From positions 5,836-69,835 of the forward strand of contig CAYMXS010000006.1 in assembly GCA_964394465.1 (NCBI GenBank): DNA of 64,000 bases, read 5' to 3'. The translations under genes and the position numbers were made by a program. This DNA comes from an uncultured Thermoplasmata archaeon (GTDB taxonomy: Archaea; Thermoplasmatota; Thermoplasmata; Halarchaeoplasmatales; Halarchaeoplasmataceae). Below are positions 1,434 to 56,408 of this stretch, one piece after another. Numbering within the stretch: position 1 is the stretch's first letter; the number at the start of each line of letters is the position of its first letter. The notes beneath the pieces were generated by a model. That model had not been told where the DNA came from. It did no database searches and saw only the letters and a list, made by a program, of their open reading frames with translations.

Positions 1434-1808
1434 ATGGAAAAAGATAAGATACTGGATGGAATAGAGCACGACCTGGAAGAACTGCCTGGTCGCTTAAAAC
1501 GTTTGAGAGAGGATATCGACTTGAACAGGCTGCCGCTGGAACAGAGGATCAGGCATCCGGCCCTTGAAGACATGGAACTACAGGACCTGTGGAAGGCGGT
1601 AAGATCCAACGGTCAGACGGTCCGACCTCACTTACTCTCTTCTTCCTCCTCTTTAGTTCTCTTTGATCTGCGGTGTATGAACAGAGATATCACCACTAAA
1701 GCAAGTACCGCTACTATCCCTATGATGATCAAAGCAGAACCGTCTTCATCCCCTTCAGAGGGCGTACCTGTTACCGTTGGACACTCACTGATATCTGAAC
1801 TTTTATAA
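1434..1808 (+). CDS. possible small protein; only the first ~65 aa look protein-like
   Basis: The N-terminal half (MEKDKILDGIEHDLEELPGRLKRLREDIDLNRLPLEQRIRHPALEDMELQDLWKAV) is charged and helical-looking. The rest is antisense to the TM helix and basic tail of the 1628..3790 gene and is low complexity. Confidence 0.2.
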   Translation: MEKDKILDGIEHDLEELPGRLKRLREDIDLNRLPLEQRIRHPALEDMELQDLWKAVRSNGQTVRPHLLSSSSSLVLFDLRCMNRDITTKASTATIPMMIKAEPSSSPSEGVPVTVGHSLISELL

Positions 1809-3790: not shown

Positions 3791-6700
3791 GGATATCAGT
3801 CTCCTTTTTCTTCAGTTTTTTGAGTTCTTCTTTTGCTCGTTTTTTACTTTCTTTTCGTTTCTTTTTCTTATCTTTATCCTTCTTTGGATTAACCGTACCT
3901 AAAATCAGGATGATCGCTCCAAGGCTCAGTATCGCAGTCAGGGCGTAAACCCAGACAGAGGATGCACTAGGATGGGTACCTTTGTCTTTATCATCATCTT
4001 CTACGTACACCTCAAAACTGGAGCTGCCGGTATTTCCCGCCTCGTCTTTTACCACCAGTTTGACGGTGTGATCCCCACCGCTTGTAAACCGATAGGTCGA
4101 TTTATTCCCCTCTATCTTTTCTCCATCTACATACCATATATACTGGGTTATGCCAATATTGTCAGATGACGATGTACCGTTTAGTAGAACTTCTTCACCT
4201 TTTTCCACTATGATATCCGTTCCCGCTCTGGCGATAGGGGCTTGCACATCCACAATTTCTTTACTGGATTTCTCACTTTTGGCCCAGTTAGAGGACGTAT
4301 CGACCGCAGATATCTTGTAGTAAAGTTCCCGTGCCCTAAAAGGTATGGATATGTCGGTCTCATAAGTCTTTTCATCCATAGGTTTCAAAGATCTGTTCAG
4401 CCTCCCTGAGACGTCCGTCCAGTATATCACATAGGCACGTTCTATATCGATATTATCTTCGATACCGACATTGAGATTGTAAAGTTCTCCTGTGCCGGGT
4501 GGTGATAATTCATCGGCTGAGAATGTAGGTGCATCGTTATCGATAACGTCGATTTCGATCGATTCAGATACTGTCCAGTAACCCGAGGTGTCCCGAGCTG
4601 AAACAGTATATTTCAACCGGGTTGCGTTGTATGGTACGTTTATATTTACCCTATAGTGGCCTTCGCCAACGTTTTTCAAACTCTTGTTCACATGATCTGT
4701 TACATCGGTCCAGTAATCCACATAAACATGTTCTATACCCTCGTTGTCACTCACGGTGGCGTTCAGAGTGTAGAAATCCCCTGTGGTGGGGTTTCCAGTC
4801 CTGTTAATCGAGATCCTTGGAGGGTTGATATCTCTTATCGCTGTAGAGAAAGGTCCTAGACTCGCCTCGTTGTAGGATACATCCAGTGCTAAGATCTTAT
4901 AGTGTATGTCTTCTTCGTCTTTTGGAACCTTTATTTTGAGCTCGTAATTGCTGTTTCTTACTGTATCCATGGTCCTGTTGTACTTTTTCTCGGGATCAGT
5001 CCAGTGAATGATCCGTACATCTCTGACCTCTATGTTATCAGTTACTTTAACGTCGAACGTGAAGTTCCTTCCCGCAACCGCCGAGTCGGGAGTGTTATCG
5101 GTTATCTGGGGCGGTTCGCCTTCTCTGTAGGGCTCTAATAAAGGCAGGTGGTCCATATCACTCGTTTGCGAGATCAGGTAAGGTGTATCGGCGAAGCCGT
5201 CGCTCCCCTCTTTGTTCTGTTTCGGGCCCGACCTTTTATCCATGTCTACATGGTCGGACCAGTAGTTACCTCCGGATGGATAAGTAGCGTTCCAGTGGTT
5301 GTTTCCTCCAGCCCGTACTTGTTCATCGTTATCGATGAAGTTGTTATGATATATTCTGTTATCTCTAGATGACGAGAGATGGATGCCTAGATGATTTTTC
5401 ATCACGTCGTTACCGGTGAAGACGTTATCCCTGCAGTGGTAGCCCTTTATGCCGACCTGGCTGTTATTGGAGATAACGTTATCGGCGATCGTATTATTTT
5501 GTGAATAGCCCATCAATATCCCGTTATCTTTTCCGCTGATATTTTGGTTTTCCACTGTTATGTTGCTGCAGTCTGCCAGTATAACTTCACCCGCATTTGG
5601 AGGCACATCTCCCCCGTTCTGATCTTTTAGATAATATATCGGTTTACCATATACAGTATTGGAACTAGTGATAGTATGGGAGTCCCAATGGGATTTATAG
5701 AAACCACCTTCTATATTTATGCTGCAATCTGGAAAAGTATTATTCTTCAACGTGGTGTTTACTGTATGTCGCAACTCTAGTCCTTCCTCGCTGCCCAAAA
5801 TAGAGTTACCTATGAGCCTGTTTCCACCAGATGCTAAAAGCGATATACCTAATGGATTATCAATCAATTCGTTATCGACGATCAAGTTGTCTTCTGGGCC
5901 TTCTCTAAAATAAATGCCCGTGTCTTTATTGCGCAAAAAAGTATTATTAGAGATTGTGTTGCCATCAGAATATTGGTGGATGGTGAGCCCTTTGTAATTC
6001 TGTTTTAGTTGATTACCAGCGATCCTATTATCGTGAGGGTAATAGGCTGCAGGGGCGAACGGCGACGACTCGATTTTGACCCCATGAAAGTTTCCAGTTA
6101 TTTTGTTATCGACTATAGTATTGTTGTAACTTTCACGTTTAAATAGGATACCTTCGCCAAGGCCTTCGGTCTCGTTAGTAGCACTCAGGGAATTATTATA
6201 GACTCTGATATTAGTCGAGTCCCTGATTATCATCCCGATAAAGTTATCGACCATCGTGTTATTGGAAAGATTTCCATTTTTAGAGTCGTAGAGATAGATC
6301 CCAGATTCGTCATGACCTGTGGCGTTCGATAGATGACAATATCTTATGGAAAAGTGATCGGTGACGTTTCCGATGTATATACAGAACCCGCTTTCTCTTC
6401 CATCTATCTTATAGTCCTCTATGATCCAGGGAGCTTCTTCACTGCCGTTCCCTTCCCACCCTTCCTGTTCAGCGGTCTTCGCGAAATCCACGTTATTATC
6501 TATCCGGATAGGTTCGTGGGTCTGGTAGTCATCTGCTGTTATTTTTTCTCTGAGGCCCATTTGGTTATCTTCTAAGTGGGGAGAAAATTTGAAACCATCG
6601 ATGTCATTACCGGTTTTAGTTGAAAAAAGATTTTGGTTCGTATCTTGAACATGAAAATCTAGACCACCAGAATGATTGCTATTAAAATCTTTCTCTTTCA

Positions 6701-6914
6701 GAGATAAATTCGAGCAATGGTTATGCATTATATCTCTATCAAGGCTGTCTGACTTCGGATTAATAGTTTCCTTGTATTTACTATCGCCGTTTTTATCTAA
6801 TTCTCCATCACAATCATATTCAGAATCACATCTCTCTAAGTTGAGTAATCCAAACGCTCCATTAAATATCAATAGAGTGACGATCAGTCCTGCAAATACC
6901 GATTGAGCTTTCAT
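3780..6914 (-). CDS. secreted right-handed parallel beta-helix (PbH1) repeat protein with Ig-like and PKD domains and C-terminal TM anchor
   Basis: Multiple PbH1-type repeats (e.g. NNTIADNVISNNSQVGIKGYHCRDNVFTGNDVMKNHLGIHLSSSRDNRIYHNNFIDN). Four Ig-like repeats (VSDNEGIEHVYVDYW). A PKD-like domain (ARAGTDIIVEKGEEVLLNGTSSSDN..YIWYVDGE). TM plus Lys-rich tail. Overlaps the next gene by 11 nt. Confidence 0.8.
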   Translation of the reverse strand: MKAQSVFAGLIVTLLIFNGAFGLLNLERCDSEYDCDGELDKNGDSKYKETINPKSDSLDRDIMHNHCSNLSLKEKDFNSNHSGGLDFHVQDTNQNLFSTKTGNDIDGFKFSPHLEDNQMGLREKITADDYQTHEPIRIDNNVDFAKTAEQEGWEGNGSEEAPWIIEDYKIDGRESGFCIYIGNVTDHFSIRYCHLSNATGHDESGIYLYDSKNGNLSNNTMVDNFIGMIIRDSTNIRVYNNSLSATNETEGLGEGILFKRESYNNTIVDNKITGNFHGVKIESSPFAPAAYYPHDNRIAGNQLKQNYKGLTIHQYSDGNTISNNTFLRNKDTGIYFREGPEDNLIVDNELIDNPLGISLLASGGNRLIGNSILGSEEGLELRHTVNTTLKNNTFPDCSINIEGGFYKSHWDSHTITSSNTVYGKPIYYLKDQNGGDVPPNAGEVILADCSNITVENQNISGKDNGILMGYSQNNTIADNVISNNSQVGIKGYHCRDNVFTGNDVMKNHLGIHLSSSRDNRIYHNNFIDNDEQVRAGGNNHWNATYPSGGNYWSDHVDMDKRSGPKQNKEGSDGFADTPYLISQTSDMDHLPLLEPYREGEPPQITDNTPDSAVAGRNFTFDVKVTDNIEVRDVRIIHWTDPEKKYNRTMDTVRNSNYELKIKVPKDEEDIHYKILALDVSYNEASLGPFSTAIRDINPPRISINRTGNPTTGDFYTLNATVSDNEGIEHVYVDYWTDVTDHVNKSLKNVGEGHYRVNINVPYNATRLKYTVSARDTSGYWTVSESIEIDVIDNDAPTFSADELSPPGTGELYNLNVGIEDNIDIERAYVIYWTDVSGRLNRSLKPMDEKTYETDISIPFRARELYYKISAVDTSSNWAKSEKSSKEIVDVQAPIARAGTDIIVEKGEEVLLNGTSSSDNIGITQYIWYVDGEKIEGNKSTYRFTSGGDHTVKLVVKDEAGNTGSSSFEVYVEDDDKDKGTHPSASSVWVYALTAILSLGAIILILGTVNPKKDKDKKKKRKESKKRAKEELKKLKKKETDIHDK

Positions 6915-6974
6915 ATACTTATTTTCCCTCTTTTGAATATAAAAGATAGAAAAGAGTTTTTATAATTTTTGATT

Positions 6975-8699
6975 TTAGGGAGATATAGAATTAATGCTGC
7001 CATATTCCACATAAAACGTCACTGTATCTGTGTTGGTATTACCATCATAGTCATATGCCTTGACTGTTACGTCATACCAGAAACCTCCGACGAACGTATA
7101 TGTATAGCTTTCATCAGTTCCCATGTCTCGCCAGGTTCCATCGTCTATTTGTAATTCATAATGGTCTATGGAAGTATCACCGTCTCCTCCGTTCCATTTT
7201 ATTGTAATCTGCCCTTCATCATATGAATAGCCATCCTTAGGATAATATATGTTTACCCATGGGTCTTCAAGGTCTATCTCTAATCCACACCGAGTATCCT
7301 TTGGAACATCAGAACATGATATTGTATGAGCATTACCGTTCTCATTATAGCTATCGTACCATTCTATTTGGTATGATGAAATTGTACTCGGATCTGGATC
7401 AGGATCAGTTTCTAGTCCATTAATATAACTGGAAGCTTGTAATTGGTATGTTCCATCATCAGGCAGAGGTGTCGTCTGTGGTGATATGTCAACACACATA
7501 AAAGACGGGTAATTTTTACTTTCATCTTTGTAGAAAACATGGGAGTCAAGAACCCTTTCCCCACTATTAGTCTCTTCTACCGCCCAATAATCGTTTCTTG
7601 AATTTGGATCACTGAACTCCCATGTGGCCAGTCTCGAAGGCTCATCATTTCCATCGTAGGTTACATCGGTATACCGCCAATAACTCGTGTCGATCTCATT
7701 TAATGTATTGTAGGTCAGCCAATAGTATCCATTATCACCAATTGATCCTCCCCAACTGTTAACTACTTTAAATGCACCAGTGTCCCCGTCCTCTGATATG
7801 GCATCATCGTACCCAACAATAGTATTAGCGTGATCAACAGAATTGCTCGAATATTCATCACTTGAGATTACATTGTCATTATAACCAAGACCATCATCAT
7901 ATTCATCTGAGTCTATACTAAAGGGGATGGGGTGTTTATTGTCAATCCATGTTTTGAGTGTTTGGATATCTACTGAGGTGAGGCATTTTTTGCCGTTTAT
8001 TCTGTATGAAGGGGCTTCTCTCCACGCTGACTCATCACCCCAATCCGAATAATCACTGTCATCATAGGGCAATTCAGCTAAACTTGCCCCACCTAGCTCA
8101 TGAGCAATATGCATATTCCGATAAAAAGCTGAACCATCAGTTCCAAAGTTAACTTTATTAAATGTCCATGCTGGGCTCATACGGTATTGGGGGGAATCGG
8201 AAACGTCCCATCCACGAGCTCTTGCAATCTCATACGTAAGCGTATAGTAGGTAGTTGCCCATGCGGTACAAGACCCTTGAGTTCCTTGGTCTCCTACGGA
8301 AGGAAAATACATATCATCTGATAAATCAGCGGAGGAAGTTTGGACATATGGAGAAAAGTTAGAGGTGGACCAGCTATCCTCATTAACTTTTCCTTTTCCA
8401 TTGACCACTGTAAGGTTCCCAACCATTTCTTCATAAGTTCTATTTGTTGGTGGGGCTAATCCTGTTCCATGTCCATTCACAAGATGGTTATAGCTTTCTC
8501 CAGGTTTTCTCACTCCTCTTTCTTCTTTCCACTGTAACATTTCTTCTCGGGTCAGTTTATGTGTTTCATATTCATTTCCGTTCCCGTTGTTATTCAATTC
8601 TCTATCGGTCTGGGCATTTCCTTTACCCACAACCAATAGGGTACTACTCCCTATCAAAAGAAATATCGCGAGTATACATATATGCTTTTTCCATTTCAT
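6975..8699 (-). CDS. secreted papain-like cysteine peptidase (family C1) with C-terminal beta-rich domains
   Basis: Signal peptide. Papain-family catalytic motifs: Q-x5-C in DQGTQGSCTAW, His in HANTIVGYDD, Asn in NSWGGSIGDNGYYWLTY. Confidence 0.75.
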   Translation of the reverse strand: MKWKKHICILAIFLLIGSSTLLVVGKGNAQTDRELNNNGNGNEYETHKLTREEMLQWKEERGVRKPGESYNHLVNGHGTGLAPPTNRTYEEMVGNLTVVNGKGKVNEDSWSTSNFSPYVQTSSADLSDDMYFPSVGDQGTQGSCTAWATTYYTLTYEIARARGWDVSDSPQYRMSPAWTFNKVNFGTDGSAFYRNMHIAHELGGASLAELPYDDSDYSDWGDESAWREAPSYRINGKKCLTSVDIQTLKTWIDNKHPIPFSIDSDEYDDGLGYNDNVISSDEYSSNSVDHANTIVGYDDAISEDGDTGAFKVVNSWGGSIGDNGYYWLTYNTLNEIDTSYWRYTDVTYDGNDEPSRLATWEFSDPNSRNDYWAVEETNSGERVLDSHVFYKDESKNYPSFMCVDISPQTTPLPDDGTYQLQASSYINGLETDPDPDPSTISSYQIEWYDSYNENGNAHTISCSDVPKDTRCGLEIDLEDPWVNIYYPKDGYSYDEGQITIKWNGGDGDTSIDHYELQIDDGTWRDMGTDESYTYTFVGGFWYDVTVKAYDYDGNTNTDTVTFYVEYGSINSISP

Positions 8700-41751: not shown

Positions 41752-42567
41752 ATGATAGGAAGAGAGAACAAGAGAAAGGTCAACCTTTTAGGCGAAGCTG
41801 GTGTGGGCAAAACTTCTTTGATACTTCGTTTCGTTAAGAACGTCTTCGGAGAAGAATACCTGAAGACCATAGGAACAAATATCTACACGAAGAAGGTCCC
41901 TGTCACCGGCTCCGAGGTGAAGCTAGTTCTTCATGACATAATGGGGGATACGGATTTTGACACCGTGCGTGAGACCGCATTCCAAAAATCCACCGGTGCC
42001 ATAGCCGTGGCGGACTGCCTGAGAAAGGAGACATTGGATAGACTGGTTGAGGACTGGCTGCCCATGTATAAGGAGGCTTCTGTAGACAATGCCCCTGTCA
42101 TCCTTGCCGTAAATAAGGTGGATCTAGATGACCAGGAGATCACTGAAGAACTGGTAGCTAACGATTGGCAGGTCTATTTCGACAGCGTCTTCTACACCTC
42201 GGCCAAGACCGGCAAGAACGTGGAAGATATGTTCAACGAGCTGGGATTCAGAACCATATATAACAAGCCCTCCTTGGCCAGGAAGGGAGAGGATATGATA
42301 ACGATGGATAGAGTGATAGACGAACCAAGAGGATTGATGTCCGCCCTTCTTACTTACGCTTCCGTCAAGGGTGATATGCCCTATTCTACTAGAGAAGAGA
42401 TCTTCGAGAAGAGCGGGATCGACAAGTTTTCCCTAGACGAAGGTATATCGGAGAAAGAAGTATTGACTTTTGCCGATGGTCTTATAGAGTGGTATGAGGA
42501 GGACGGGGATCCAGATTCGGCTTCAGCCACTGAAAGCCTGGTCGAAAAATATGAAAAAGATTCTTAG
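41752..42567 (+). CDS. Ras-superfamily small GTPase with ~100-aa C-terminal extension (paralog 1)
   Basis: G1 GEAGVGKTS, switch-I Thr (KTIGT), G3 DIMGD (Asp where Gln is canonical), G4 NKVD, G5 TSAK. C-terminal extension shared with paralog 2. Confidence 0.8.
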   Translation: MIGRENKRKVNLLGEAGVGKTSLILRFVKNVFGEEYLKTIGTNIYTKKVPVTGSEVKLVLHDIMGDTDFDTVRETAFQKSTGAIAVADCLRKETLDRLVEDWLPMYKEASVDNAPVILAVNKVDLDDQEITEELVANDWQVYFDSVFYTSAKTGKNVEDMFNELGFRTIYNKPSLARKGEDMITMDRVIDEPRGLMSALLTYASVKGDMPYSTREEIFEKSGIDKFSLDEGISEKEVLTFADGLIEWYEEDGDPDSASATESLVEKYEKDS

Positions 42568-42588
42568 AGAACTCAGTGTCAAATCAAG

Positions 42589-43398
42589 ATGATAGGTAAC
42601 GAGAAGAGAAGAAAGGTGAACCTACTAGGTGAAACCAAAGTGGGCAAGACCGCCTTGGTACTCCGTTTCGTGGAAGACATATATGGAGAGGAATATCTGA
42701 AGACTATAGGCACGAACGTTTATACCAAGAAGGTCCCGGTCACGGGGTCGATGGTGAAGTTGGTCATACACGATATCATGGGTGATACCGACTTCGAGAC
42801 CGTTCGGGAGGTGGCCTTTCAGAAGTCCACTGGAGCCATTGCGGTAGTTGATCACAAGAGAGAAGAAACGTTGGACAGGCTGATCGAGGATTGGCTGCCC
42901 CTGTATAAAAAAGAAGCTGTGGACAACGCACCTATCATCTTGGCTATCAACAATCTAGAGGACGAGGATATAAGAGAAGAGGTAGTTAGTGACGAGGTGC
43001 TATTCTATTTCGATTCAGTATTCTATACATCTGCAAAAACGGGAAAAAACGTGCAGGATGTTTTCAGAGAACTCGGATTCAACTGCATCTATAACCAGCC
43101 CTCTATGATAAGGAAAGGGGAAGAATTCGTGGTCAAAGATAAAACACTAGAGACCCCAAAGAAGTTGTTATCCGCCCTCCTCACCTACGCCTCAGTCAAG
43201 GGGGACATGCCCTACTCGACCAGAGAAGAGATATTCGAAGAGAGCGGGATAGATAAATTCTCATTGGATGAAAAGATCTCGGAGGAGGAGGTTTTGTCAT
43301 TCGGTAATGGACTCATCCGATGGTATGAAAAAGATGGGGATGACGGATCCGCCTCCGCCACTAGTGATCTGATCGGAAAATATGAGAGAGAGTCCTAG
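42589..43398 (+). CDS. Ras-superfamily small GTPase paralog 2 with degenerate G4 motif
   Basis: G1 GETKVGKTA, G3 DIMGD, G5 TSAK, but G4 reads NNLE instead of NKxD. About 70% identical to paralog 1 including the C-terminal extension (LLTYASVKGDMPYSTREEIFE.SGIDKFSLDE). Confidence 0.75.
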   Translation: MIGNEKRRKVNLLGETKVGKTALVLRFVEDIYGEEYLKTIGTNVYTKKVPVTGSMVKLVIHDIMGDTDFETVREVAFQKSTGAIAVVDHKREETLDRLIEDWLPLYKKEAVDNAPIILAINNLEDEDIREEVVSDEVLFYFDSVFYTSAKTGKNVQDVFRELGFNCIYNQPSMIRKGEEFVVKDKTLETPKKLLSALLTYASVKGDMPYSTREEIFEESGIDKFSLDEKISEEEVLSFGNGLIRWYEKDGDDGSASATSDLIGKYERES

Positions 43399-43413
43399 AG
43401 GATTAGATACGAA

Positions 43414-46400
43414 CTAATCCTCTTCTTGGAATATCTGCTTCAGCTTCTCTCTTGCACCTCTGAGCTTCTCCATGTCTCCGTCCCAGTCCTCGAGTTCTTC
43501 TTCATACTCATCCTCAATATCCTCTATAGTTTCCTGTATGCTGCCGATCTCTTCGTCGGTCAGTTCTCCAGAGTATTTGACCGCTATGTACACGTACTCC
43601 CCTCTCTTGATCACTATCTTGTTGTCCTGGAACTCCAGTTTGTCTATGCTCCAGTCGTCTTCATCCTTGAATGAGTCCTTGATGAAGTTCTGTATGGCTG
43701 TCAGCATGCCCGCCATGACGTCCTCATCCATATCCGGCCTTAGCCTTCTCGTCTCATGGGCTATCAGCATGGCATCGTTCCCTATGAGGAATATCTCGTC
43801 GATGATGGCCTCTTCTTCCTCTTCACCGAGATATTGTGTATAGACGTAAGCGGCGGCTCCGGTTGACCCTATGATGATGAGGAATAAAAGCCAAAGGTAT
43901 CCATCTTGAGAGGATGAAGAAGCTGATCCTTTCGATTCGTCCACCCCAAAGGTCTGCTCTCCTGAACTGTTCCAGTTGTCAGATGAATCCTTTACGCAGA
44001 TGGTATAACTGTAGGTACCAGGATGGGAGTACGTCGAATTGTAGTACCATCTTTCTTCCGTCAACGATTTCATACTCTCATTGCGATGGGTTCCATCCGG
44101 ATAAATCAGATTGATCCAGACATCTTCTATCTCATGATTATCCCTGACCTCTGCCGTGATATTGACATGGTCTCCGGTTTCCTGTGGGTCGGGGGATACG
44201 AACATGTTCGATATGCCCGGTCTTATCGTATCTTCTATCCTGAAGTAGTGCCCACCGGAGGTGTTCCAGTTTGATGAAGCATCTCTCGCTAGGATCTCAT
44301 AACCATACATCCCGGTCTTGCTGTAAGTAGAATTGTAGTACCATAGTTCTCCCGGAGTAGAGTTCATACTGATATTTCGGCGGTCTCCTCCAGGTAGGTC
44401 TATGACCAGCCAGATCCCACTTATCTCTCCCTCATGAGTCACCTCGGCTGTAATATTCACATGTCCTCCGGTATCTTGAGGTTCTGGAAAAGCCACTACG
44501 CTCTGTATGTTCGGAGGCGTTTTTTCCTCAATCTCGAAGGAACGAGCGGTAGAACTGTTCCAGTTGTTCGACGGGTCTTTCGCTACGATCGTGAAACCAT
44601 GAATCCCAGAGGTGTTGTAAGTGGAGTTATAGTACCATATATCTCCTGACCCTGATTCCATACTCTTATTCTGGATATGTCCATCGGGACCGGTGATATT
44701 TACCAAGACATGGCTGACATGATCATCATCAGTTACAGCAGCGGTGATATTCACATGATCTCCTGGCTCTTGGGTTCCAGGCGTACTTACCACGTCTGAT
44801 ATCTCTGGAGCTTCGATATCTTCTATCTCAAAGGAATGGACGATAGTTGCATTCCAGTTATCCCCTGTATCTTTGGCGCAGATCGTATAATCATGTACAC
44901 CAAGCTCATCGTAGTGGGAGTTATAGTACCATCCATCATACGGTCCAGGTTCCATACTACTATTTTGTTCATCTCCTCCTGGAAAGACGATGTTTATCCA
45001 TACCGCTTCCAACTGATCGTTATCGGTTATATCGGCAGTTATATTGATGTGTCCTCCCTTCCCCTGCTTGTTTGGCAAGGCTGAAACGTTCGAGATCTCT
45101 GGTTCGATAGAGTCCTCGATCACGAAGGTATGGCCGCTTGAACTGTTCCAATTATTTACGGTATCGTCCGCCCAGATGGCATAACTGTACTCCCCCAGTT
45201 CGGTATAGGTGGAGTTATAGTACCATGAATTCTCCTGGGATGGGGCCATGGTTAGATTATAATGATCACCGTCGGGGTCGGTGATATTGATCCATACCTC
45301 GCCGACCCGATGGTTATCGGTCACGCTAGCGCTTATATTGACATATCCATTTAGCCCTTGAGTCTCAGGTGAGTTGACCACATCCGATATCACAGGGGCT
45401 TCGATATCCACTATGTCAAAAGACCGCACCTCAGTGGTGTTCACGTTACCAGATGTATCGTTCGCCCAGATGGTATATTCATAGGTCCCCGGTACGGTAT
45501 AAGTCGAATTATAGAACCACAGAGATACCATGTTTGATACCATACTCCTGTTCTGATGGGTACCGTCTGGCTTGGTTATGTTCACCCAGACCTCTCCGAC
45601 TTCATGATCGTCAGTTATGTTAGCGCTTATATTGACGTAACCTTCAGTTTCCTGAGGATCGGGCGAAACCATGACCTCATTTATCTCTGGAGCGGTACTA
45701 TCGACGACCAAAAAGTTATGACCACTCGAACTTGCTTGGTTACCCCAGGTATCGTTCGCCAGGACAGTAAAATCATATTTACCCAATTCGGAATAGGTAG
45801 AGTTGTAGTACCACATATTATATTGTGATTTTGTCATATTCTTTATGATATGTTCTCCGTCCGGATAGGTTATATTGACCCATACTTTTTTGAGCTCAGA
45901 AGTATCGGTGACCTTTGCAGTTATGTTTACGGTTCTTCCCACGTTCTGTTCCTGAGGTGTCACCTCTACATTGTTGATATCTGGCGGATCAGTTTCCATG
46001 ATGGTAAAATCATGGCCGCTGGAGGTGTTCCAGTTCTTAGAGGTATCATTCGCCCAGATGGTATAATCATAGGTCCCTAACTCGGTATAGGTCTCGTTAT
46101 AGTACCATCGATCACCGGGCCCCTTGTCCATACTCACGTTTTGATGATTACCGCCTGGGTAATAGATATCTACCTTTACTTTTTTGAGCTTATGGTTATC
46201 TGTTATATTGGCTGTGATATTGACATACTCCCCTATCACTTGTACATTCGGCACAGCCTTTACATCCGATATCTTGGGAGATATGGTATCATTTATCTCG
46301 AAGGTCTGACCTGTGGAGCGATTCCGGTTGTTAGATGTGTCATTCGCCCATATCCTATACTCATAACTCCCTGGCACATAGTAGGTAGAATTGTGATACC

Positions 46401-49400
46401 ATCCATCCTCCAACCCTGAGTTCATGCTCACATTTTGATAGGTCCCGTTAGGACCCGTTATATTGACCCAGACCTCGTCCAACTGATGGTTATCGGTTAT
46501 ATCAGCCGTTATATTGACATATCTCCCAGGTTCTTGAGGATCAGGTGAGGCACTGATGTTGTCTATCTCTGGTTCGAGGGTATCCTCTATCAAAAATGTC
46601 TCCTCCCGGGAGTGGTTCAGATTGCCAGCGGTGTCATTCGCGTAGATCACGTAGTGATAGGTACCTAAGACGGTATAATTGGATTCAAAATACCATTTAT
46701 CCCCTGTACCGGGATCCATACTCACATTTTGGTACATACTGTTCGGATGGGTGATGTTAAGCCAGACCTCGTCAACTTGAGCGTTATCGGTTATATCAGC
46801 CGTTATATTCACGGGCCCTCCGGTCTTCTGTTGATTAGGATCGGCTGAAACGTTCGATATCTTTGGGTCTATCGGGTCCACTATCTCGAAGGTATGGGCA
46901 CCTGTTGCGGTCGTATCCCAGTTATTAGATGTATCGTTCGCAGCGATGACGTAATAGTGGATGCCCACACTGTGATAGGTGGAGTTATAATACCATTGCC
47001 CACCCTGACCCTGGACCATACTATTATTTACATAACCACCACTAGGATAGGATATATTGACACAGACTTTCCCCAGGTTATAGTTATCTGATACATTTGC
47101 GGTGATATTCACATGTCCACCGGCCTGTATATAATCAGGAGAGGCCATAACATCCGATATCTGAGGCGGAGATAGATCCACTATCTCAAAATAGTGTACA
47201 TCTGAGATGTTCCAGTTGTTAGAATCGTCCTGAGCTAAAATCCTATAGGTGTAATTCCCCAAAAGAGTATAATTTGACTCGTGATACCATTCATCCCCTA
47301 TACCTGGGTCCATACTAACGTTCTCGAAAGTACTGTTCGGATAGGTGATGTTGACATAGACTTCATTCACATGAGCGTTATCAGTCACATTGGCTGTGAT
47401 ATTGACATATCTGTCCGTCTCCTGTGGGTCCGGCTTGGCATCCACATCTGTTATCTCAGGAGGTGCATCATCGTATATGGTGATGGTAACGTTCGCGGTA
47501 TCGGCCTTGCCGGCCCCGTCCTCTATCTTGTACGTGTAATTGTCCGTACATGAATAGTTAGTGTTAGGTTTATATTGTATCTCCCCTGTCGTATGATTGG
47601 TTGTGGCTATAGAACCATCAGATGGAGGGGTTATGATTGTTATAGACGTATAATTCAGATCGTCATTATCGTCAACATCGTTGATAGTAACATTCGTCCA
47701 CACATCGCCTCCCGCGGCACAGCTGTCCGAATCGTCTTTAGCCAAGGGCGCATCGTTTACTTCGTTAACGGTGATGTTTACCGTAGCTATATTAGATGTG
47801 ATGCCATCGGTGTCATCGACCGTATAATTGAAACTGTCCAAACCAGAATAGTTGGTGTCCGGCATATATCTTATCTCGCCAGTAGTACCATTTACCGATG
47901 TTGAGCCATGGGCTGGTCCGCTGGTTACCGTCACCGTGGAGGGATCAAGCGAGCCTTCCGAGGCAGTATCATTGGCAAGCACATCGCACAAAACTGCTGT
48001 ATCTTCGTCAGTTATATTTTGATCGTCATTGGCCGTCGGAGGGGCCTTTATGGTGAAATTTTTCTGGCTGGAACTGTTCCAGTTATCTGAGGTGTCATTC
48101 GCCCAGACAGTATAATTACAGGTGCCTAGGGAAGTGTATGTAGAATTGTAGTACCACAGATCATCTGTAGACCGGTTCATACTCACATTCTGATGACTGC
48201 TGTCAGGATAAGTGATGTTTACAGAGACTTTTTTTACTTCGTGAATGTCATTTACCTGTGCAGTTATATTCACCCATCCTCCAATCCCTTGGGGATCCGG
48301 TAAAGCTGATACGTTTGATACCTTCGGAGCGGTGGTATCTTCGATTTTAAAATTATGAATAGAAGTTTTCGCCCAGTTATCCGAGGTGTCGTTCGCCCAT
48401 ATAATATAATCATAAGTCCCCGTTGAAGTATAAGTTGAGTTGTAGTACCACAGACCACTCCCTCCCAGAGACATGCTTTCGTTTTGAGAAGTGCCATTTG
48501 GATGAGTGATATTGACCCATGCTTTGCCCACTTCATGATTATCTTCTACATCGGCACTGATATTGACATATCCTCCCGTTTCTTGAGTAGATGGACCCGT
48601 AACGTTATAGATGGTCGGTGCGATGGTGTCTTCTACATCATACCAATTACTGGAAGAACTATTCCAGTTGTTCGATGTATCGTTCGCCTCAATCGAATAG
48701 TATATACCCGTAGCGTTATTCCAGACAGAAATGTTTAGCCAGTAATTGGTTGAGGGCTTCATACTTTGGTTAAACCACTTGCCGTATCCGCCTGATGACT
48801 CCAATTTATATCTTAACCAGACCGTGTCAACTTCAGCATTATCCGTGACGTTAGCCGTGACGTTGAAAGATCCTCCGGTTGTTGGCGTTCTAGTGGTGGT
48901 ATCTTGAATCTCTGGCTTAGCTGTATCGTTCGTTTTAACGCTTATATCGTCAGCACGGAGAGAGCAATTTACCTGCTGAGAGCCTGAGGTGATGACGTCA
49001 ACATATAATTCCACGCTCACCTTATTGACTTTCCCCACTGGTGTATAATCCTTGTTCAGAGGGTGAAAATTATTCCAACCCGTGGACCCTTCTCCTAAAT
49101 CATCCCAGTAGGTAGATTTACTGTATATCTGCTTCCACCCAATAGTAGTATCGTTGACTGAGACTCTGGCAGTAGCTGTGATATTTTCTGCATCATACTC
49201 CGTAATATCATTTATTGTGCAATTGAAAGCTCCGTTCACGATGACTTCTTTTTTGATATCACCGATGCTTTGGGTCCAATTTCCCATTTGAGTGGCATCT
49301 GATTCTAAAGAAACCTCTACATATGTCTCGATACAGCCACTTCCATCACTGGTATTGGTGTGAGTGCTATCATAACGGTTACCATTTTCATCAGGTGATC

Positions 49401-49590
49401 CCTGACTATACTCTGATAAAGACCAGGATTCATATGAGCCATTGAATCCTCCATTCTCCACAAGCTCATACCTGACTGTATCCGCCTGTACCTCCTCTGT
49501 ACAGTTTATGCTAACGAGAGCGAAGAGTAACAGAACGGTCAATAGTATGGCTATCTTTCTTTTCATCGTCCTCAACAGTTTTATTTTCAC
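43414..49590 (-). CDS. giant (2058 aa) surface protein: signal peptide, N-terminal jelly-roll-like domain, ~15 tandem ~95-aa Ig-like repeats plus 2 cadherin-like modules, single TM, cytoplasmic Roadblock/LC7-like domain
   Basis: Repeat consensus P.I.NV...P..Q..GG.VNITA.VTDN..V..VWVNIT.P.G..QN.SM......WYYNSTY...GTY.Y.IWANDTS.NWN.S....F.I.D occurs 15 times. Cadherin-like segments carry NDAP. TM YLWLLFLIIIGSTGAAAYVYTQYL. The tail (IFLIGNDAMLIAHETR ... DVMAGMLTAIQNFIKDSF ... WSIDKLEFQDNKIVIKRGEYVYIAVKY) resembles MglB/Roadblock. Confidence 0.85.
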   Translation of the reverse strand: MKIKLLRTMKRKIAILLTVLLLFALVSINCTEEVQADTVRYELVENGGFNGSYESWSLSEYSQGSPDENGNRYDSTHTNTSDGSGCIETYVEVSLESDATQMGNWTQSIGDIKKEVIVNGAFNCTINDITEYDAENITATARVSVNDTTIGWKQIYSKSTYWDDLGEGSTGWNNFHPLNKDYTPVGKVNKVSVELYVDVITSGSQQVNCSLRADDISVKTNDTAKPEIQDTTTRTPTTGGSFNVTANVTDNAEVDTVWLRYKLESSGGYGKWFNQSMKPSTNYWLNISVWNNATGIYYSIEANDTSNNWNSSSSNWYDVEDTIAPTIYNVTGPSTQETGGYVNISADVEDNHEVGKAWVNITHPNGTSQNESMSLGGSGLWYYNSTYTSTGTYDYIIWANDTSDNWAKTSIHNFKIEDTTAPKVSNVSALPDPQGIGGWVNITAQVNDIHEVKKVSVNITYPDSSHQNVSMNRSTDDLWYYNSTYTSLGTCNYTVWANDTSDNWNSSSQKNFTIKAPPTANDDQNITDEDTAVLCDVLANDTASEGSLDPSTVTVTSGPAHGSTSVNGTTGEIRYMPDTNYSGLDSFNYTVDDTDGITSNIATVNITVNEVNDAPLAKDDSDSCAAGGDVWTNVTINDVDDNDDLNYTSITIITPPSDGSIATTNHTTGEIQYKPNTNYSCTDNYTYKIEDGAGKADTANVTITIYDDAPPEITDVDAKPDPQETDRYVNITANVTDNAHVNEVYVNITYPNSTFENVSMDPGIGDEWYHESNYTLLGNYTYRILAQDDSNNWNISDVHYFEIVDLSPPQISDVMASPDYIQAGGHVNITANVSDNYNLGKVCVNISYPSGGYVNNSMVQGQGGQWYYNSTYHSVGIHYYVIAANDTSNNWDTTATGAHTFEIVDPIDPKISNVSADPNQQKTGGPVNITADITDNAQVDEVWLNITHPNSMYQNVSMDPGTGDKWYFESNYTVLGTYHYVIYANDTAGNLNHSREETFLIEDTLEPEIDNISASPDPQEPGRYVNITADITDNHQLDEVWVNITGPNGTYQNVSMNSGLEDGWYHNSTYYVPGSYEYRIWANDTSNNRNRSTGQTFEINDTISPKISDVKAVPNVQVIGEYVNITANITDNHKLKKVKVDIYYPGGNHQNVSMDKGPGDRWYYNETYTELGTYDYTIWANDTSKNWNTSSGHDFTIMETDPPDINNVEVTPQEQNVGRTVNITAKVTDTSELKKVWVNITYPDGEHIIKNMTKSQYNMWYYNSTYSELGKYDFTVLANDTWGNQASSSGHNFLVVDSTAPEINEVMVSPDPQETEGYVNISANITDDHEVGEVWVNITKPDGTHQNRSMVSNMVSLWFYNSTYTVPGTYEYTIWANDTSGNVNTTEVRSFDIVDIEAPVISDVVNSPETQGLNGYVNISASVTDNHRVGEVWINITDPDGDHYNLTMAPSQENSWYYNSTYTELGEYSYAIWADDTVNNWNSSSGHTFVIEDSIEPEISNVSALPNKQGKGGHINITADITDNDQLEAVWINIVFPGGDEQNSSMEPGPYDGWYYNSHYDELGVHDYTICAKDTGDNWNATIVHSFEIEDIEAPEISDVVSTPGTQEPGDHVNITAAVTDDDHVSHVLVNITGPDGHIQNKSMESGSGDIWYYNSTYNTSGIHGFTIVAKDPSNNWNSSTARSFEIEEKTPPNIQSVVAFPEPQDTGGHVNITAEVTHEGEISGIWLVIDLPGGDRRNISMNSTPGELWYYNSTYSKTGMYGYEILARDASSNWNTSGGHYFRIEDTIRPGISNMFVSPDPQETGDHVNITAEVRDNHEIEDVWINLIYPDGTHRNESMKSLTEERWYYNSTYSHPGTYSYTICVKDSSDNWNSSGEQTFGVDESKGSASSSSQDGYLWLLFLIIIGSTGAAAYVYTQYLGEEEEEAIIDEIFLIGNDAMLIAHETRRLRPDMDEDVMAGMLTAIQNFIKDSFKDEDDWSIDKLEFQDNKIVIKRGEYVYIAVKYSGELTDEEIGSIQETIEDIEDEYEEELEDWDGDMEKLRGAREKLKQIFQEED

Positions 49591-53153: not shown

Positions 53154-56100
53154 ATGACGGTGAGTCAAAAAGTGATGGCTATCGGACTAGCGGCTGTTTT
53201 CCTTATCGGTTCACTGTCAGGAGCAGGTAAGTATCTTAGAACGCAAGAAGCAGAATGTGTGGATAAGGTCGATATAGATGTCACAACCAGCAGAGATACA
53301 GCCATCCAGAAAGTAGCGGATGGGGAGAAGGATATACTCCTCCAGAGTTTAGGGATGAAAAATTATGCTGATGTATCCGACGATCTCAAAGACAAATTGG
53401 GGTTATGGACTGGTAGTGGAGAATATTATAACTTGCTACTCAACCCAGCGCACGAACCAGATGCATCTACGCCGGACGGTGAAAGCTGGAAATACGTCTG
53501 TCAGGACGATGAAGACGGCAATAAAATGTTCAATCCCTTCGCAGTTAAAAAATTCCGTTACGCCATGAACTTTCTGGTAAACAGGAAGAAAATAGGTAGT
53601 GATATTTTTGAAGGCTATGCGGAACCACGTTATTTTCCTGTAAAAACCGGAACTGGACCTTATGAAGACTATTTCGAAGCGATAAAAGAGGAACACGGGA
53701 TAACCAGCACGGGTAACCTCCAAAAAGCGAAAGAAATGATCTATAACGTCTTGGAAAAAGCGAATGATGACATGGTTGAAGGAGATATAAGGTCTCCAAA
53801 AGACCATCACGGGGACTACTGGCAGTACAAGCCTCCGGGGAAGGCATGGAAAAATATGACAGTTCAAGGAGTCTTTGGGAATGATTTCACAGAAAAAAAG
53901 ATGGAACAATACGTTGAAAATCTGTTAGAAGATGAAATAGGAATAAAGGTGATACCCAATCCGTTTGACACAACGATGGGACCTCCTAATGTATACTCCG
54001 GAGAATATGACGATCCCCTTGATGATTATGGGTGGAGCTATTATATAGAGGGATGGCATCCCTATGGAAATACCTACTATCCAGGTGGTAGGGCTGTCGA
54101 GAGATACTGCCCTTCTCCATCCTATGGAGCCATGCCTAATCTTGTAGAAGGAGAAACACATTACCAATATGAGAACGAAACGTTGGTCAGGCTGGGAAAG
54201 TCCCTCTATAACGGCAAGATAAACACAGTCGACGAGTACTGGAACAAGCTAACCAGACTCGTGGAAGCTGGGTTGGACGAGTCGATCAGAGTCTTCCTTA
54301 GTACTGAGAAGGAATATTATGTGTACAACGATGACAAAGTAATGGGTGCGGCAACGGACGTAGTTACTGGCTGGTCTGACGTGTTCGGGCCGAGAACGAT
54401 CCGGACAAACGATGGAAACCTATCGGCAACGGTCTTTGATATCGATCTTTCCGAGTACCGTTGGAACTATATTGGTGGTTCTGAAGAGGGATTCAGTGAC
54501 CGTATCCGAAAGATGGTTCGTGGAGTCGCTGGAGCTACTCATCCTCAAACAGGAAAACCAATGGGAGTACGAGAAAGTTGGACCGTAACAAAGGATTACA
54601 CATGGGAAGAGGACGGAAATCTGACAAAGAAAATAGAGGTCCCATCTAGCGCCGTGGTCTATAAAGCGAACCAAACTGATAAACGATGGGAGCAAGTCGG
54701 CACAGGTAAGAAATCCGCGGTGAAAGTCACTTATGACGTGGATCTGGGCAGATGGCACGACGGCCATGAGATGACCGTTCGGGATATCATGGCTTATTAC
54801 GCTTTCAGTAAGGACATGTGCTACGACCTCGGCGAAGAAGGGGATTATTATAACCAGCTATATGCTTGGCAACGAAAGGCATTCTACGATGATATCGTCG
54901 CTACCAGATGGAACCAGGAAGAAAATACATTTACGATCTGGGGAGACTATACCTTCCCGGCAAAAAGTAAGATAGGTGAGTATTTCACCGTATGGCCCAT
55001 CCAACCGTATCAAATATACGAGGCGACAGAGCAGCTGGTCATAGAGAGCGACCTTGTACCCGAGGGAAGCGAGCCCTATGCTTGGGATAATTATGGCGAA
55101 GGTAACTTGGTCCACTACCTGAGCGAGTCGCAGGGGTCGGACATAAAAACCGTCCTCCAGAACATGAAATCGGCGGATTGGATGCCTCCGTACTTGAAAA
55201 AGGAGAACAATGCACCGATCAATATCTCCCAGGCAGAATTCGAGAGTCAAATAGACGATATAATCGGGTTCTATGATGAATACCACCATCTCTACGATTC
55301 GAACGGTCCATTCAAGATCACCGATTACAACTCGACTACGCACGAGATGAGCATGAAAAGAGCCAGTGGATATCCATATCCTATGGATCACTGGGAGGAG
55401 AAGTTGTCCATAGAGAAGTTCACTTTCTCTACAGATATACAGACATCCGATGAGATAGTAAGAGGAGATGATCTAACAGTCGAGGTCGGGGCTTTGATAG
55501 ATGCCGACTATCCAATAGACGAGGATAGAGACTTGCCCCCGGGTACTGAAGCAAACATCACCCTGAGCAACATGGTGACGAGTGAGAAGGCGAAAAGAGT
55601 GACCGAGCCAACGATAGGAAACCGGTCTATCTCTACAGTGATCGAGACGGAAGACATGGTCCCGGGAACGTATCGATTGACTATAGAGGCAAAGACACCT
55701 GGCGGTTGGACCCGAAGTATCGAGAAAACTGTAAAGCTCTTAGAACCAGATAAATTTCTGGTTAAAAGTCTCACCGTCGATGGAGATAATGAACAGACAC
55801 AGGTAAACCAATTCGTCAATACTACGATCAAAACTAGAGTGCTAAATACATATAAGAGTGATCAAACAGCGAAGTTGGAAGTCGACGGTTCTACGATAAA
55901 AGAAAAGACAGTGAAAGCCGGAGAGACCGAGAACTTTTCTGCTACATATCGTTTCACCACCACGGGCGAGCATACCGTAAAGGTAGGTAACAGGTCCGTT
56001 GTCGTATCAGTGGTCAAAGGAGGTCTCGATATCACCGGTCTCCACCTTGAAAACGAGAAGATAGAGAAAGGTAGATCGGTATCCATCTCGGCGAACATCG

Positions 56101-56408
56101 AAAACGGTCGGTCTTCGCCAGTGAAAGTGAAGGTGCTGATAAAGGATGAGACCGGAGAAGTCGTAGACAGCAAGCTCTTTACGGTCGATGCGGGAGATAC
56201 TACCAGTATATCCTGGAGCAGAACTTTCAAAGAGGAAGGCGAATACACGGTCGAGCTAGGTGATCAATCACAGAGTCTAGAAGTCAAAGAGGATATTGAT
56301 AGGGAAGAAGAGCCGGACGAAGATTGGATGCTGATGCTCGGCTTGACCGCGGTGATGGGTGTTATCATCGCCATCGTGTTTTCGTGGGTATATAGAGAAG
56401 AAAGATAG
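53154..56408 (+). CDS. membrane-anchored family-5 solute-binding-protein-like domain fused to CARDB/Ig-like domains
   Basis: N-terminal TM/signal. FRYAMNFLVNRKKIGSDIFEGYAEP matches the Opp/Dpp-type SBP signature region. C-terminal CARDB-like repeats (ITGLHLENEKIEKGRSVSISANIENGRSSPVKVKV). TM plus REER tail. Confidence 0.6.
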   Translation: MTVSQKVMAIGLAAVFLIGSLSGAGKYLRTQEAECVDKVDIDVTTSRDTAIQKVADGEKDILLQSLGMKNYADVSDDLKDKLGLWTGSGEYYNLLLNPAHEPDASTPDGESWKYVCQDDEDGNKMFNPFAVKKFRYAMNFLVNRKKIGSDIFEGYAEPRYFPVKTGTGPYEDYFEAIKEEHGITSTGNLQKAKEMIYNVLEKANDDMVEGDIRSPKDHHGDYWQYKPPGKAWKNMTVQGVFGNDFTEKKMEQYVENLLEDEIGIKVIPNPFDTTMGPPNVYSGEYDDPLDDYGWSYYIEGWHPYGNTYYPGGRAVERYCPSPSYGAMPNLVEGETHYQYENETLVRLGKSLYNGKINTVDEYWNKLTRLVEAGLDESIRVFLSTEKEYYVYNDDKVMGAATDVVTGWSDVFGPRTIRTNDGNLSATVFDIDLSEYRWNYIGGSEEGFSDRIRKMVRGVAGATHPQTGKPMGVRESWTVTKDYTWEEDGNLTKKIEVPSSAVVYKANQTDKRWEQVGTGKKSAVKVTYDVDLGRWHDGHEMTVRDIMAYYAFSKDMCYDLGEEGDYYNQLYAWQRKAFYDDIVATRWNQEENTFTIWGDYTFPAKSKIGEYFTVWPIQPYQIYEATEQLVIESDLVPEGSEPYAWDNYGEGNLVHYLSESQGSDIKTVLQNMKSADWMPPYLKKENNAPINISQAEFESQIDDIIGFYDEYHHLYDSNGPFKITDYNSTTHEMSMKRASGYPYPMDHWEEKLSIEKFTFSTDIQTSDEIVRGDDLTVEVGALIDADYPIDEDRDLPPGTEANITLSNMVTSEKAKRVTEPTIGNRSISTVIETEDMVPGTYRLTIEAKTPGGWTRSIEKTVKLLEPDKFLVKSLTVDGDNEQTQVNQFVNTTIKTRVLNTYKSDQTAKLEVDGSTIKEKTVKAGETENFSATYRFTTTGEHTVKVGNRSVVVSVVKGGLDITGLHLENEKIEKGRSVSISANIENGRSSPVKVKVLIKDETGEVVDSKLFTVDAGDTTSISWSRTFKEEGEYTVELGDQSQSLEVKEDIDREEEPDEDWMLMLGLTAVMGVIIAIVFSWVYREER

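Follow-up and report, generated by a model that had tools for sequence, protein, structure and literature searches.

Genes and features of the locus

The window analysed here is a 64,000-nucleotide stretch from an uncultured Thermoplasmata archaeon (assembly GCA_964394465.1, contig CAYMXS010000006.1, positions 5,836 to 69,835 of the forward strand). It carries two genes for Rab-like GTPases, followed in convergent orientation by the gene of a giant surface protein with a C-terminal domain, the tail, that is predicted to be cytoplasmic and of the longin type. Rab-like GTPase genes adjoin genes for such tail proteins far beyond chance. The tail, its family, the GTPases and the linkage between their genes are described below.

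The coordinates of all features are collected in Table 1. A first-pass annotation of this DNA had described two Ras-superfamily GTPases convergent on a giant surface protein, and this gene order was confirmed. Its gap of 16 bp was corrected: the stop codons of GTPase 2 and of the giant gene lie at 43396-43398 and 43414-43416, and the convergent genes are therefore separated by 15 bp. In the public gene call for an identical locus (GCA_905333475.1), the giant protein starts with the ATG at 49566 and comprises 2050 amino acids (aa). This ATG is likely the true start, and the GTG at 49590 a mechanical start of the open reading frame (ORF). The single membrane pass of the first-pass annotation was retained, and its length of 2058 aa applies only if counted from the GTG.

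Table 1. Coordinates of the features at the locus, given as positions in the window.
Feature	Position	Strand	Details	Source
GTPase 1 gene	41752-42567	+	271 aa	six-frame ORF listing
Conserved C-terminal extension of GTPase 1	42247-42564	+	aa 166-271, ~100 aa; same region in GTPase 2	
GTPase 2 gene	42589-43398	+	269 aa	six-frame ORF listing
Perfect 10-bp inverted repeat	43397-43423 (arms 43397-43406, 43414-43423)		AGAGGATTAG, 7-nt loop, CTAATCCTCT	sequence
Giant surface protein gene	43414-49590	-	2058 aa from GTG start	six-frame ORF listing
Predicted longin-fold core	43426-43806	-	aa 1929-2055; elements b1 b2 a1 b3 b4 b5 a2 a3	
Single transmembrane helix	43828-43899	-	aa 1898-1921; YLWLLFLIIIGSTGAAAYVYTQYL; directly precedes tail	translation
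Ectodomain	43900-49482	-	~15-16 Ig-like 98-aa repeats (DUF4625/GlgE_N_S-like) and two Big_9/cadherin-like domains	Pfam
Two Big_9/cadherin-like domains	47461-48042	-	aa 517-710	Pfam
Signal peptide	49483-49566	-	counted from ATG; MKRKIAILLTVLLLFALVSINCTEEVQA	translation

Architecture and topology of the giant surface protein

Pfam matches of the ectodomain included DUF4625 (E 2e-40), Big_9 (E 6e-26) and Cadherin_5 (E 3e-14), with a repeat spacing of 98 aa. The giant protein contains 117 N-glycosylation sequons (NxS/T) and ends in an acidic tail of 136 aa (aa 1923-2058). Judged from these features, it is a predicted type I glycosylated archaeal surface protein with a cytoplasmic tail. The cytoplasmic location, already proposed in the first-pass annotation, is backed by the signal peptide, the sequon-rich ectodomain, the one transmembrane helix and the charge bias of the tail family. 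Across the family, the mean number of lysine plus arginine residues in the 12 aa flanking the transmembrane helix is 2.46 after the helix versus 0.73 before it, and 79% of the proteins carry more after it.

Predicted fold of the tail

For fold prediction, AlphaFold2 (AF2) was run on a 39-sequence alignment (A3). The resulting tail model (pLDDT 88.9, pTM 0.83) shows the order beta-beta-alpha-beta-beta-beta-alpha-alpha without an N-terminal helix. A five-stranded antiparallel sheet is sandwiched by helices, as in the Roadblock/longin superfamily, to which structural similarity was significant. Structure comparison of the model (figure per match in brackets) gave Sec22b (12.5), the VAMP7 longin domain (11.9), AP-3 sigma (11.7), Ykt6 (11.6), a Lokiarchaeota longin (8yqg; 11.4), TRAPPC4 (11.4), Sedlin (11.0), the SRX domain of SRalpha (10.2), Lst4 and Ccz1 (9.9) and Mon1 (9.6), followed by the Roadblock proteins MP1 (9.0) and MK-D1 Roadblock3 (9.0) and by MglB (8.6). 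With Foldseek as an independent comparison, AP sigma subunits ranked first (TM-score 0.56-0.60), and Roadblock, LAMTOR and MglB structures reached ~0.4, all at a probability of ~1. Sequence identity to the structural matches was 5-14%, and profile searches of PDB sequences gave no sequence-level link to solved longin or Roadblock structures.

Compared with Roadblock domains, longin domains have no N-terminal helix and one extra C-terminal helix (Tran et al. 2024, PMC10933270). Since the model lacks an N-terminal helix and has two C-terminal helices, the tail is assigned to the longin type. The order b1-b2-a1-b3-b4-b5-a2-a3 over ~120-140 aa is that of longin domains. A Roadblock/LC7 domain of the MglB type was ruled out: the order alpha-beta-beta-alpha-beta-beta-beta(-alpha) was not found in the model, and the window tail did not match Robl_LC7 (PF03259) at E<=1. 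One family member (P0128, copy 2) scored 19.6 bits against Robl_LC7, below the cut-off of 23. Of the earlier assignment as Roadblock/LC7 (MglB-like), the superfamily thus stands and the type does not, on the evidence of AF2 topology, structural ranking and the missing Robl_LC7 match. On the basis of the model, the tail is a longin-type member of the Roadblock/longin superfamily.

The tail belongs to a large unnamed family

An exhaustive search with HMMER, run against 1.84 billion representative proteins, revealed the family and yielded 4597 clusters at E<=1e-3, 2436 at E<=1e-10 and 184 at E<=1e-30. A word-indexed homology search returned one protein with the tail alone and one with the 39-sequence profile, which marks the sensitivity limit of that method. 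The window tail and 10 further family members gave no Pfam match, and the window tail gave no NCBIfam match. By profile, the tail is not a member of the described longin families (Pfam Longin, Sybindin, Sedlin, Clat_adaptor_s, SRX and others). Cluster-name look-up for the family produced Methanomassiliicoccales as the sole name. The motifs quoted for the tail in the first-pass annotation are present and form the conserved core of this family, not a chance resemblance; the architecture is not unique to this protein.

Architectures were counted in the best 151 proteins of the HMMER search. A transmembrane helix lies at most 45 aa upstream of the domain in 104 of them, and in 86 of these 104 the domain occupies the extreme C-terminus. 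Ectodomain lengths vary between ~100 aa and over 2,400 aa. The domain also occurs in proteins with four transmembrane helices and two tandem tails, and in soluble proteins of ~2,000 aa with 2-3 copies, each copy following a CARDB-like domain. The soluble multi-copy proteins (P0122, P0125-P0131, P0137 and similar) are 1,200-2,400 aa long and have DUF5915 at the end as well as TPR-like segments. An extracellular tail, as the CARDB-like domains might imply, was rejected: neither a signal peptide nor a transmembrane helix was found in these multi-copy proteins.

Invariant or near-invariant positions are H-x-T-R-R-L-[KR]-P-D-x-D-x-D in the b2-a1 loop, GML-TA-Q-F..DSF in a1 and W-D-G in the a2-a3 loop. 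The paired arginines of the b2-a1 loop may, as a speculation, be regarded as a candidate functional site.

The two Rab-like GTPases

Both GTPases matched Pfam Ras (GTPase 1, E 1.6e-29; GTPase 2, E 1.4e-23) and also Roc and Arf. Their closest solved relatives in the PDB were Rab21, Rab35, Rab1 and a Thorarchaeota Rab (E ~1e-19 to 1e-17). Being 72% identical, they are paralogues. The earlier description as a divergent paralogous pair was therefore kept for the paralogy, and divergence applies only relative to canonical Ras.

A family alignment of 36 members (A4) gave the motifs GxxxxGKT (G1), YLKTIGT (switch I), DIMG[ED] (G3), NKxD (G4) and SAK (G5). G3, as DIMG[ED], lacks the catalytic Gln that Ras and Rab have. 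The G domain of GTPase 1 spans ~aa 1-165 and has GEAGVGKT (G1), the switch I T, DIMGD without the catalytic Gln (G3), NKVD (G4) and SAK (G5). In GTPase 2, the P-loop and SAK are intact and G4 is degenerate: AINNLED replaces NKxD, K and D being lost via a 2-aa deletion. Among the family members aligned, this degeneration is confined to GTPase 2 of the window. NKxD is retained in the tail-adjoining GTPases of related loci in a paired alignment of 24 neighbouring tail/GTPase pairs (A6). As read from its motifs, GTPase 2 may be a pseudo-GTPase or may have altered nucleotide specificity; it could act as a regulatory pseudo-GTPase partner.

Motifs and profiles place both proteins in the Ras superfamily as Rab-like GTPases, with the degenerate G4 of GTPase 2 as the exception. 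Several features of bona fide Rabs were not found in them: there is no C-terminal Cys, G3 reads DIMGD instead of DTAGQ, and a helical extension replaces the hypervariable tail. MglA-type G3 motifs are reportedly TxxGQ, with Thr replacing the canonical Asp. Across the A4 family the canonical Asp (D62) is present in G3, which does not agree with membership in the MglA family. The best 60 PDB matches of the GTPases were Rab, Ypt, Sec4 or Ral proteins, with no MglA among them.

The C-termini of the GTPases (...EKYEKDS and ...GKYERES) are without Cys, and neither a prenylation motif (C-terminal Cys) nor an N-terminal myristoylation site was found in GTPase 1 or 2. Both GTPases should therefore be soluble unless recruited, and lacking a lipid-anchor motif they would need a membrane receptor. 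The conserved C-terminal extension has the consensus LLxALLxYxSxxGDMPY...SGIDKF.L...WYE...EKY and was modelled by AF2 as a six-helix bundle (pLDDT 79.8). It had no convincing fold relative; the best weak similarities include death-fold domains (PYD, CARD, DD). A comparable C-terminal extension occurs in operonic GTPases of metagenome loci (e.g. L119, L160, L168).

Linkage of tail and GTPase genes

Linkage was examined in two sets of loci. The GTPase-centred set comprised 79 loci (1.04 Mb, one genome per GTDB species), mostly of Thermoplasmata from hypersaline settings or soda lakes (for example Natronoplasma and Saliniplasma). The tail-centred set comprised 80 metagenome loci (0.67 Mb), scanned with alignment A5. 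Six-frame ORFs of the GTPase-centred loci were searched by hidden Markov models (HMMs) derived from the tail and GTPase alignments.

A strong tail ORF was detected in 21/79 GTPase-centred loci, in all 21 less than 2 kb from the GTPase ORF. Fifteen of these tail ORFs are less than 300 bp off, and six are separated from the GTPase by one gene. Eleven of the 21 loci are convergent as in the window, with gaps of 9-62 bp, and four also have the tandem GTPase pair. GTPase and tail follow each other on the same strand at 72-258 bp in four loci. The remaining six have the order GTPase, PQQ-propeller/PKD gene, tail protein (L046; Saliniplasma-type loci). Sixteen GTPase ORFs were found in the tail-centred loci, 14 of them less than 2.5 kb from a tail ORF. 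The co-occurrence in relatives that the first-pass annotation had suggested checking was thus recovered from both sides. In ten tail-centred loci the tail precedes the GTPase on the same strand; nine have gaps of 3-74 bp, and in L158 the maximal ORFs overlap. Loci of this order often consist of 3-4 tail-protein genes in a row, followed by 1-2 GTPases.

Where tail and GTPase share a locus, they are ~2 kb or less apart in 34 of 35 loci; the exception is L126 (3.5 kb). Five arrangements occur: convergent, GTPase-tail, GTPase-PQQ-propeller-tail, tail-GTPase, and an operon consisting of a gene for a 79-aa protein, a GTPase gene, a V4R gene and a gene for a giant tail protein. The surroundings of the convergent pair vary, with at least five flanking contexts in which it is kept. 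L011 has the flanking block of L008 in inverted form and no tail gene. In sum, the linkage is strong and not universal.

The V4R operon was found on unrelated contigs in L088 (4159-12193), L089 and L103 (2618-9770); the former two were located by exact look-up and L103 in the tail-centred set. It encodes a conserved 79-aa protein, a 167-aa small GTPase, a 147-aa V4R protein and a giant longin-tail protein of ~2,300-2,400 aa (2,286 aa in L088/L089), and its start and stop codons overlap or abut. V4R belongs to the Bet3/TRAPPC3 superfamily, and as judged from sequence the composition of the operon is TRAPP-like, with a longin domain, a Bet3-like and a Rab-like protein. No V4R gene was found in the window, which lacks a TRAPP-like core in this respect.

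Further proteins were recorded near these genes. STAND-type proteins of ~1000 aa (AAA_16 P-loop and TPR) with a weaker tail-like domain near the N-terminus (HMM scores 64-78) adjoin GTPase paralogues in L005 (6725-9700, + strand), L006, L020, L021, L027-L029, L045 and L064. L005 also encodes a fusion of a GTPase with a helix-hairpin-helix domain (337 aa). Tail proteins in L087 and L107 have a stand-alone Roadblock/LC7 protein (152 aa, Pfam Robl_LC7; L087 7935-8393, - strand) at a distance of 2-5 kb. In the GTPase-centred locus L054, in which no tail gene was found, a Roadblock/LC7 protein lies ~6.4 kb from the GTPase. These cases are too few to judge linkage.

Other features of the window

The inverted repeat covers the 15-bp gap and both convergent stop codons. 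RNAfold of a 72-nt stretch around the gap folded it as a 10-bp stem in a minimum-free-energy structure of -18.9 kcal/mol, and by its sequence it could be a bidirectional terminator-like hairpin. A role as conserved regulatory element was ruled out, as the repeat is not conserved across the 11 related loci with convergent genes.

The window belongs to the core chromosome: it contains the L3-S3-SecY ribosomal protein cluster, a prolyl-type tRNA synthetase, Cbf5/TruB, an Lhr helicase and a MATE transporter. By the names that its homologues carry, it is assigned to Thermoplasmatota. Further secreted or surface proteins are encoded at 1628-8699 (- strand) and 53154-56408 (+ strand). These are a PQQ-propeller+fn3 protein (720 aa), a NosD beta-helix+PKD protein (1044 aa), a papain-like protease (574 aa) and an SBP_bac_5+CARDB protein (1084 aa); the tail domain was found in none of the four.

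Comparison with known systems

Longin GTPase platforms of eukaryotes and Asgard archaea were compared with the tail: SRalpha SRX-SRbeta, Mon1-Ccz1-Rab7, TRAPP Bet5/Trs23-Rab1, the FLCN/NPRL2/SMCR8 GTPase-activating proteins (GAPs) and the Lokiarchaeota longin 8yqg. In contrast to these, the tail comes from Thermoplasmatota, has no detectable sequence similarity to them, and forms the C-terminal cytoplasmic end of a membrane protein of type I whose ectodomain is huge; its GTPase binding is only proposed. The GP motif described for GAP-type longins (PMC12290439) is absent from the tail family, which has its own TRRLxPD and WDG motifs.

In the MglB-MglA system of Myxococcus and Thermus, the Roadblock domain has an N-terminal helix and one C-terminal helix, whereas the tail has none and two, respectively, and does not match Robl_LC7. 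MglB is soluble and the tail domain is anchored by a transmembrane helix; the GTPases of this locus are not MglA-like but Rab-like, and their G3 reads DxxG. Longin SNAREs (Sec22b, VAMP7, Ykt6) are tail-anchored, with the order longin, SNARE helix, C-terminal transmembrane helix and no ectodomain. The order here is ectodomain, transmembrane helix, C-terminal longin, and no SNARE heptad segment was seen in the tail protein, without a formal test.

The actinobacterial conservon consists of a membrane histidine kinase (CvnA), a Roadblock protein (CvnB), CvnC and an MglA-like GTPase (CvnD) (PMC4316618). It resembles the system proposed here from its genes in that a prokaryotic membrane sensor would be coupled to a small GTPase via a protein of the Roadblock superfamily. 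Its sensor, however, is a histidine kinase, its Roadblock is a separate polypeptide and its GTPase is of the MglA type; here, platform and membrane protein form a single polypeptide, and there is no kinase. Fusions and operons of GTPases with longin or Roadblock domains in Asgard archaea (LAMTOR1-like, Rab-like, DENN) likewise combine archaeal Rab/Rag-like GTPases with such domains, but these are soluble fusions or cytoplasmic operon partners.

Interpretation and alternative explanations

Dimers of longin and Roadblock domains are established docking, guanine nucleotide exchange factor (GEF) or GAP platforms for small GTPases (MglB-MglA, SRX-SRbeta, Mon1-Ccz1-Rab7, TRAPP-Rab1, FLCN/GATOR1-Rags). 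The interpretation that we favour, and regard as fairly probable, is that the longin tail serves as a membrane-anchored docking or regulatory platform for the adjacent soluble Rab-like GTPases. To the observed fold, topology, family size and non-random linkage, this interpretation adds physical binding, a biochemical activity and a direction of signalling. The tail would probably be a dimer, as is usual for longin/Roadblock platforms, and would bring the GTPase to the membrane where the surface protein sits. It might act either as a nucleotide-state-specific receptor, comparable to SRX for SRbeta, or as a regulator of the GEF or GAP type, comparable to Mon1-Ccz1, TRAPP and MglB. The GTPase switch would then couple the surface protein to the cell interior, with either outside-in contact signalling or inside-out control of placement, clustering or turnover of the surface protein. 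Given the excess adjacency of tail and GTPase genes, a surface-receptor-to-GTPase module may exist outside the Asgard archaea.

Several observations weigh against such a platform. Being convergent, the genes are not transcribed together. The 11 loci of this orientation are orthologous and therefore represent few independent events. No tail gene lies within 10 kb of the closest relative of the GTPases (L009, 80% identity). Most tail-centred loci have no GTPase in reach: of the 25 with at least 1 kb on both sides, only 8 have one within 2.5 kb, which leaves about two thirds without one. The tail may therefore have GTPase-independent roles or partners encoded elsewhere. The top structural matches, longin SNAREs and sigma/mu adaptor subunits, have longin roles unrelated to GTPases. 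In the window protein, the transmembrane helix is followed by EEEEE instead of K/R, and the evidence for its topology is therefore the signal peptide together with the features of the ectodomain and the pattern across the family.

A tail that is a GTPase-independent module for oligomerisation, sorting or anchoring of surface proteins would suit the loci without a nearby GTPase. It would also suit the top structural matches: in longin SNAREs and in AP/COPI sigma/zeta subunits, the longin domain has no direct action on GTPases. The joining of the tail domain to very different ectodomains, and also to proteins with several transmembrane helices, points the same way. The GTPases would then be loosely linked, for example by co-regulation in envelope biogenesis, without direct binding. 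This explanation is considered rather unlikely: proximity within ~2 kb in nearly all shared loci, five arrangements and operons with gaps of 3-74 bp speak against it, and the co-occurring V4R gene in L088 and L103 fits TRAPP logic. Small GTPases are rare genes in archaea, and the close linkage pattern is therefore hard to explain without a shared function. The same linkage bears on inherited synteny, in which unrelated systems would be chance neighbours within a single Thermoplasmata lineage. Synteny would be in line with convergent genes, which form no operon, with the 11 loci of the same arrangement from related genomes, three of which (L013, L016, L019) also share flanking genes, and with orthologous GTPases without a tail gene in L009 and L011. 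It is contradicted by the persistence of the pair across differing flanks and by other, co-directional and operonic arrangements of both families in unrelated lineages and metagenomes. Proximity was moreover seen in both search directions except in L126, with no spread over the 10-kb flanks. By this multi-arrangement linkage, meaningless synteny is largely refuted and has very little probability left.

DUF835 (inactivated KaiC, iKaiC) is an output domain of archaeal response regulators (PMC5847659). It directly adjoins the GTPases in ~21/79 loci (e.g. L046 8322-9233, - strand) and in L088, L098 and L110 it neighbours the tail domain or is fused with it. The tail could accordingly be imagined as a small-molecule- or protein-sensing alpha/beta-sandwich of the PAS, GAF or profilin kind that feeds iKaiC-type signalling, with the GTPases downstream or in parallel. 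This is judged improbable: no DUF835 gene was found in the window, and conservation is highest in loop residues (TRRLxPD, WDG), presumably not in an obvious pocket. The gene neighbourhoods suggest a possible three-way network of GTPase, longin tail and iKaiC.

Novelty and significance

Single Rab-like GTPases have been described in Thermoplasmatales and Aciduliprofundum (PMC4915359), and Roadblock-GTPase systems in bacteria (PMC4316618). Archaeal longin domains are treated almost only for the Asgard group in the literature searched, where no description was found of a transmembrane-anchored longin tail on surface proteins or of its GTPase linkage in Thermoplasmatota. A longin or Roadblock domain acting with a small GTPase is a known principle; new here are the architecture, the phylogenetic setting and the family of sequences. 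Longin/Roadblock-GTPase pairs are central to eukaryotic membrane traffic and therefore to debates on eukaryogenesis.

If the tail binds the GTPase, archaeal small GTPases, which have no lipid modification, would have in it the membrane anchor that they have been missing. It would also offer a concrete system, testable in vitro, for how a switch inside the cell is coupled to the archaeal surface, and would place the longin-GTPase partnership on a wider phylogenetic base. Binding would also justify the definition of a new domain family, by which thousands of "hypothetical" C-termini would be annotated.

A broader proposal is put forward tentatively, as possible and rather doubtful: transmembrane-anchored longin tails may be a widespread class of archaeal receptors (>4,500 clusters) in which diverse ectodomains (Ig, cadherin, PKD, propeller) are wired to Rab-like GTPases via a fused longin GEF/GAP platform, joined in some lineages by a V4R/Bet3-like subunit and iKaiC. 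If this were true, Thermoplasmatota would possess a "proto-TRAPP/SR-like" signalling or polarity system at the plasma membrane. The longin-Rab-Bet3 logic would then be no innovation of Asgard archaea or eukaryotes, and would have worked first on surface receptors and not on internal membranes.

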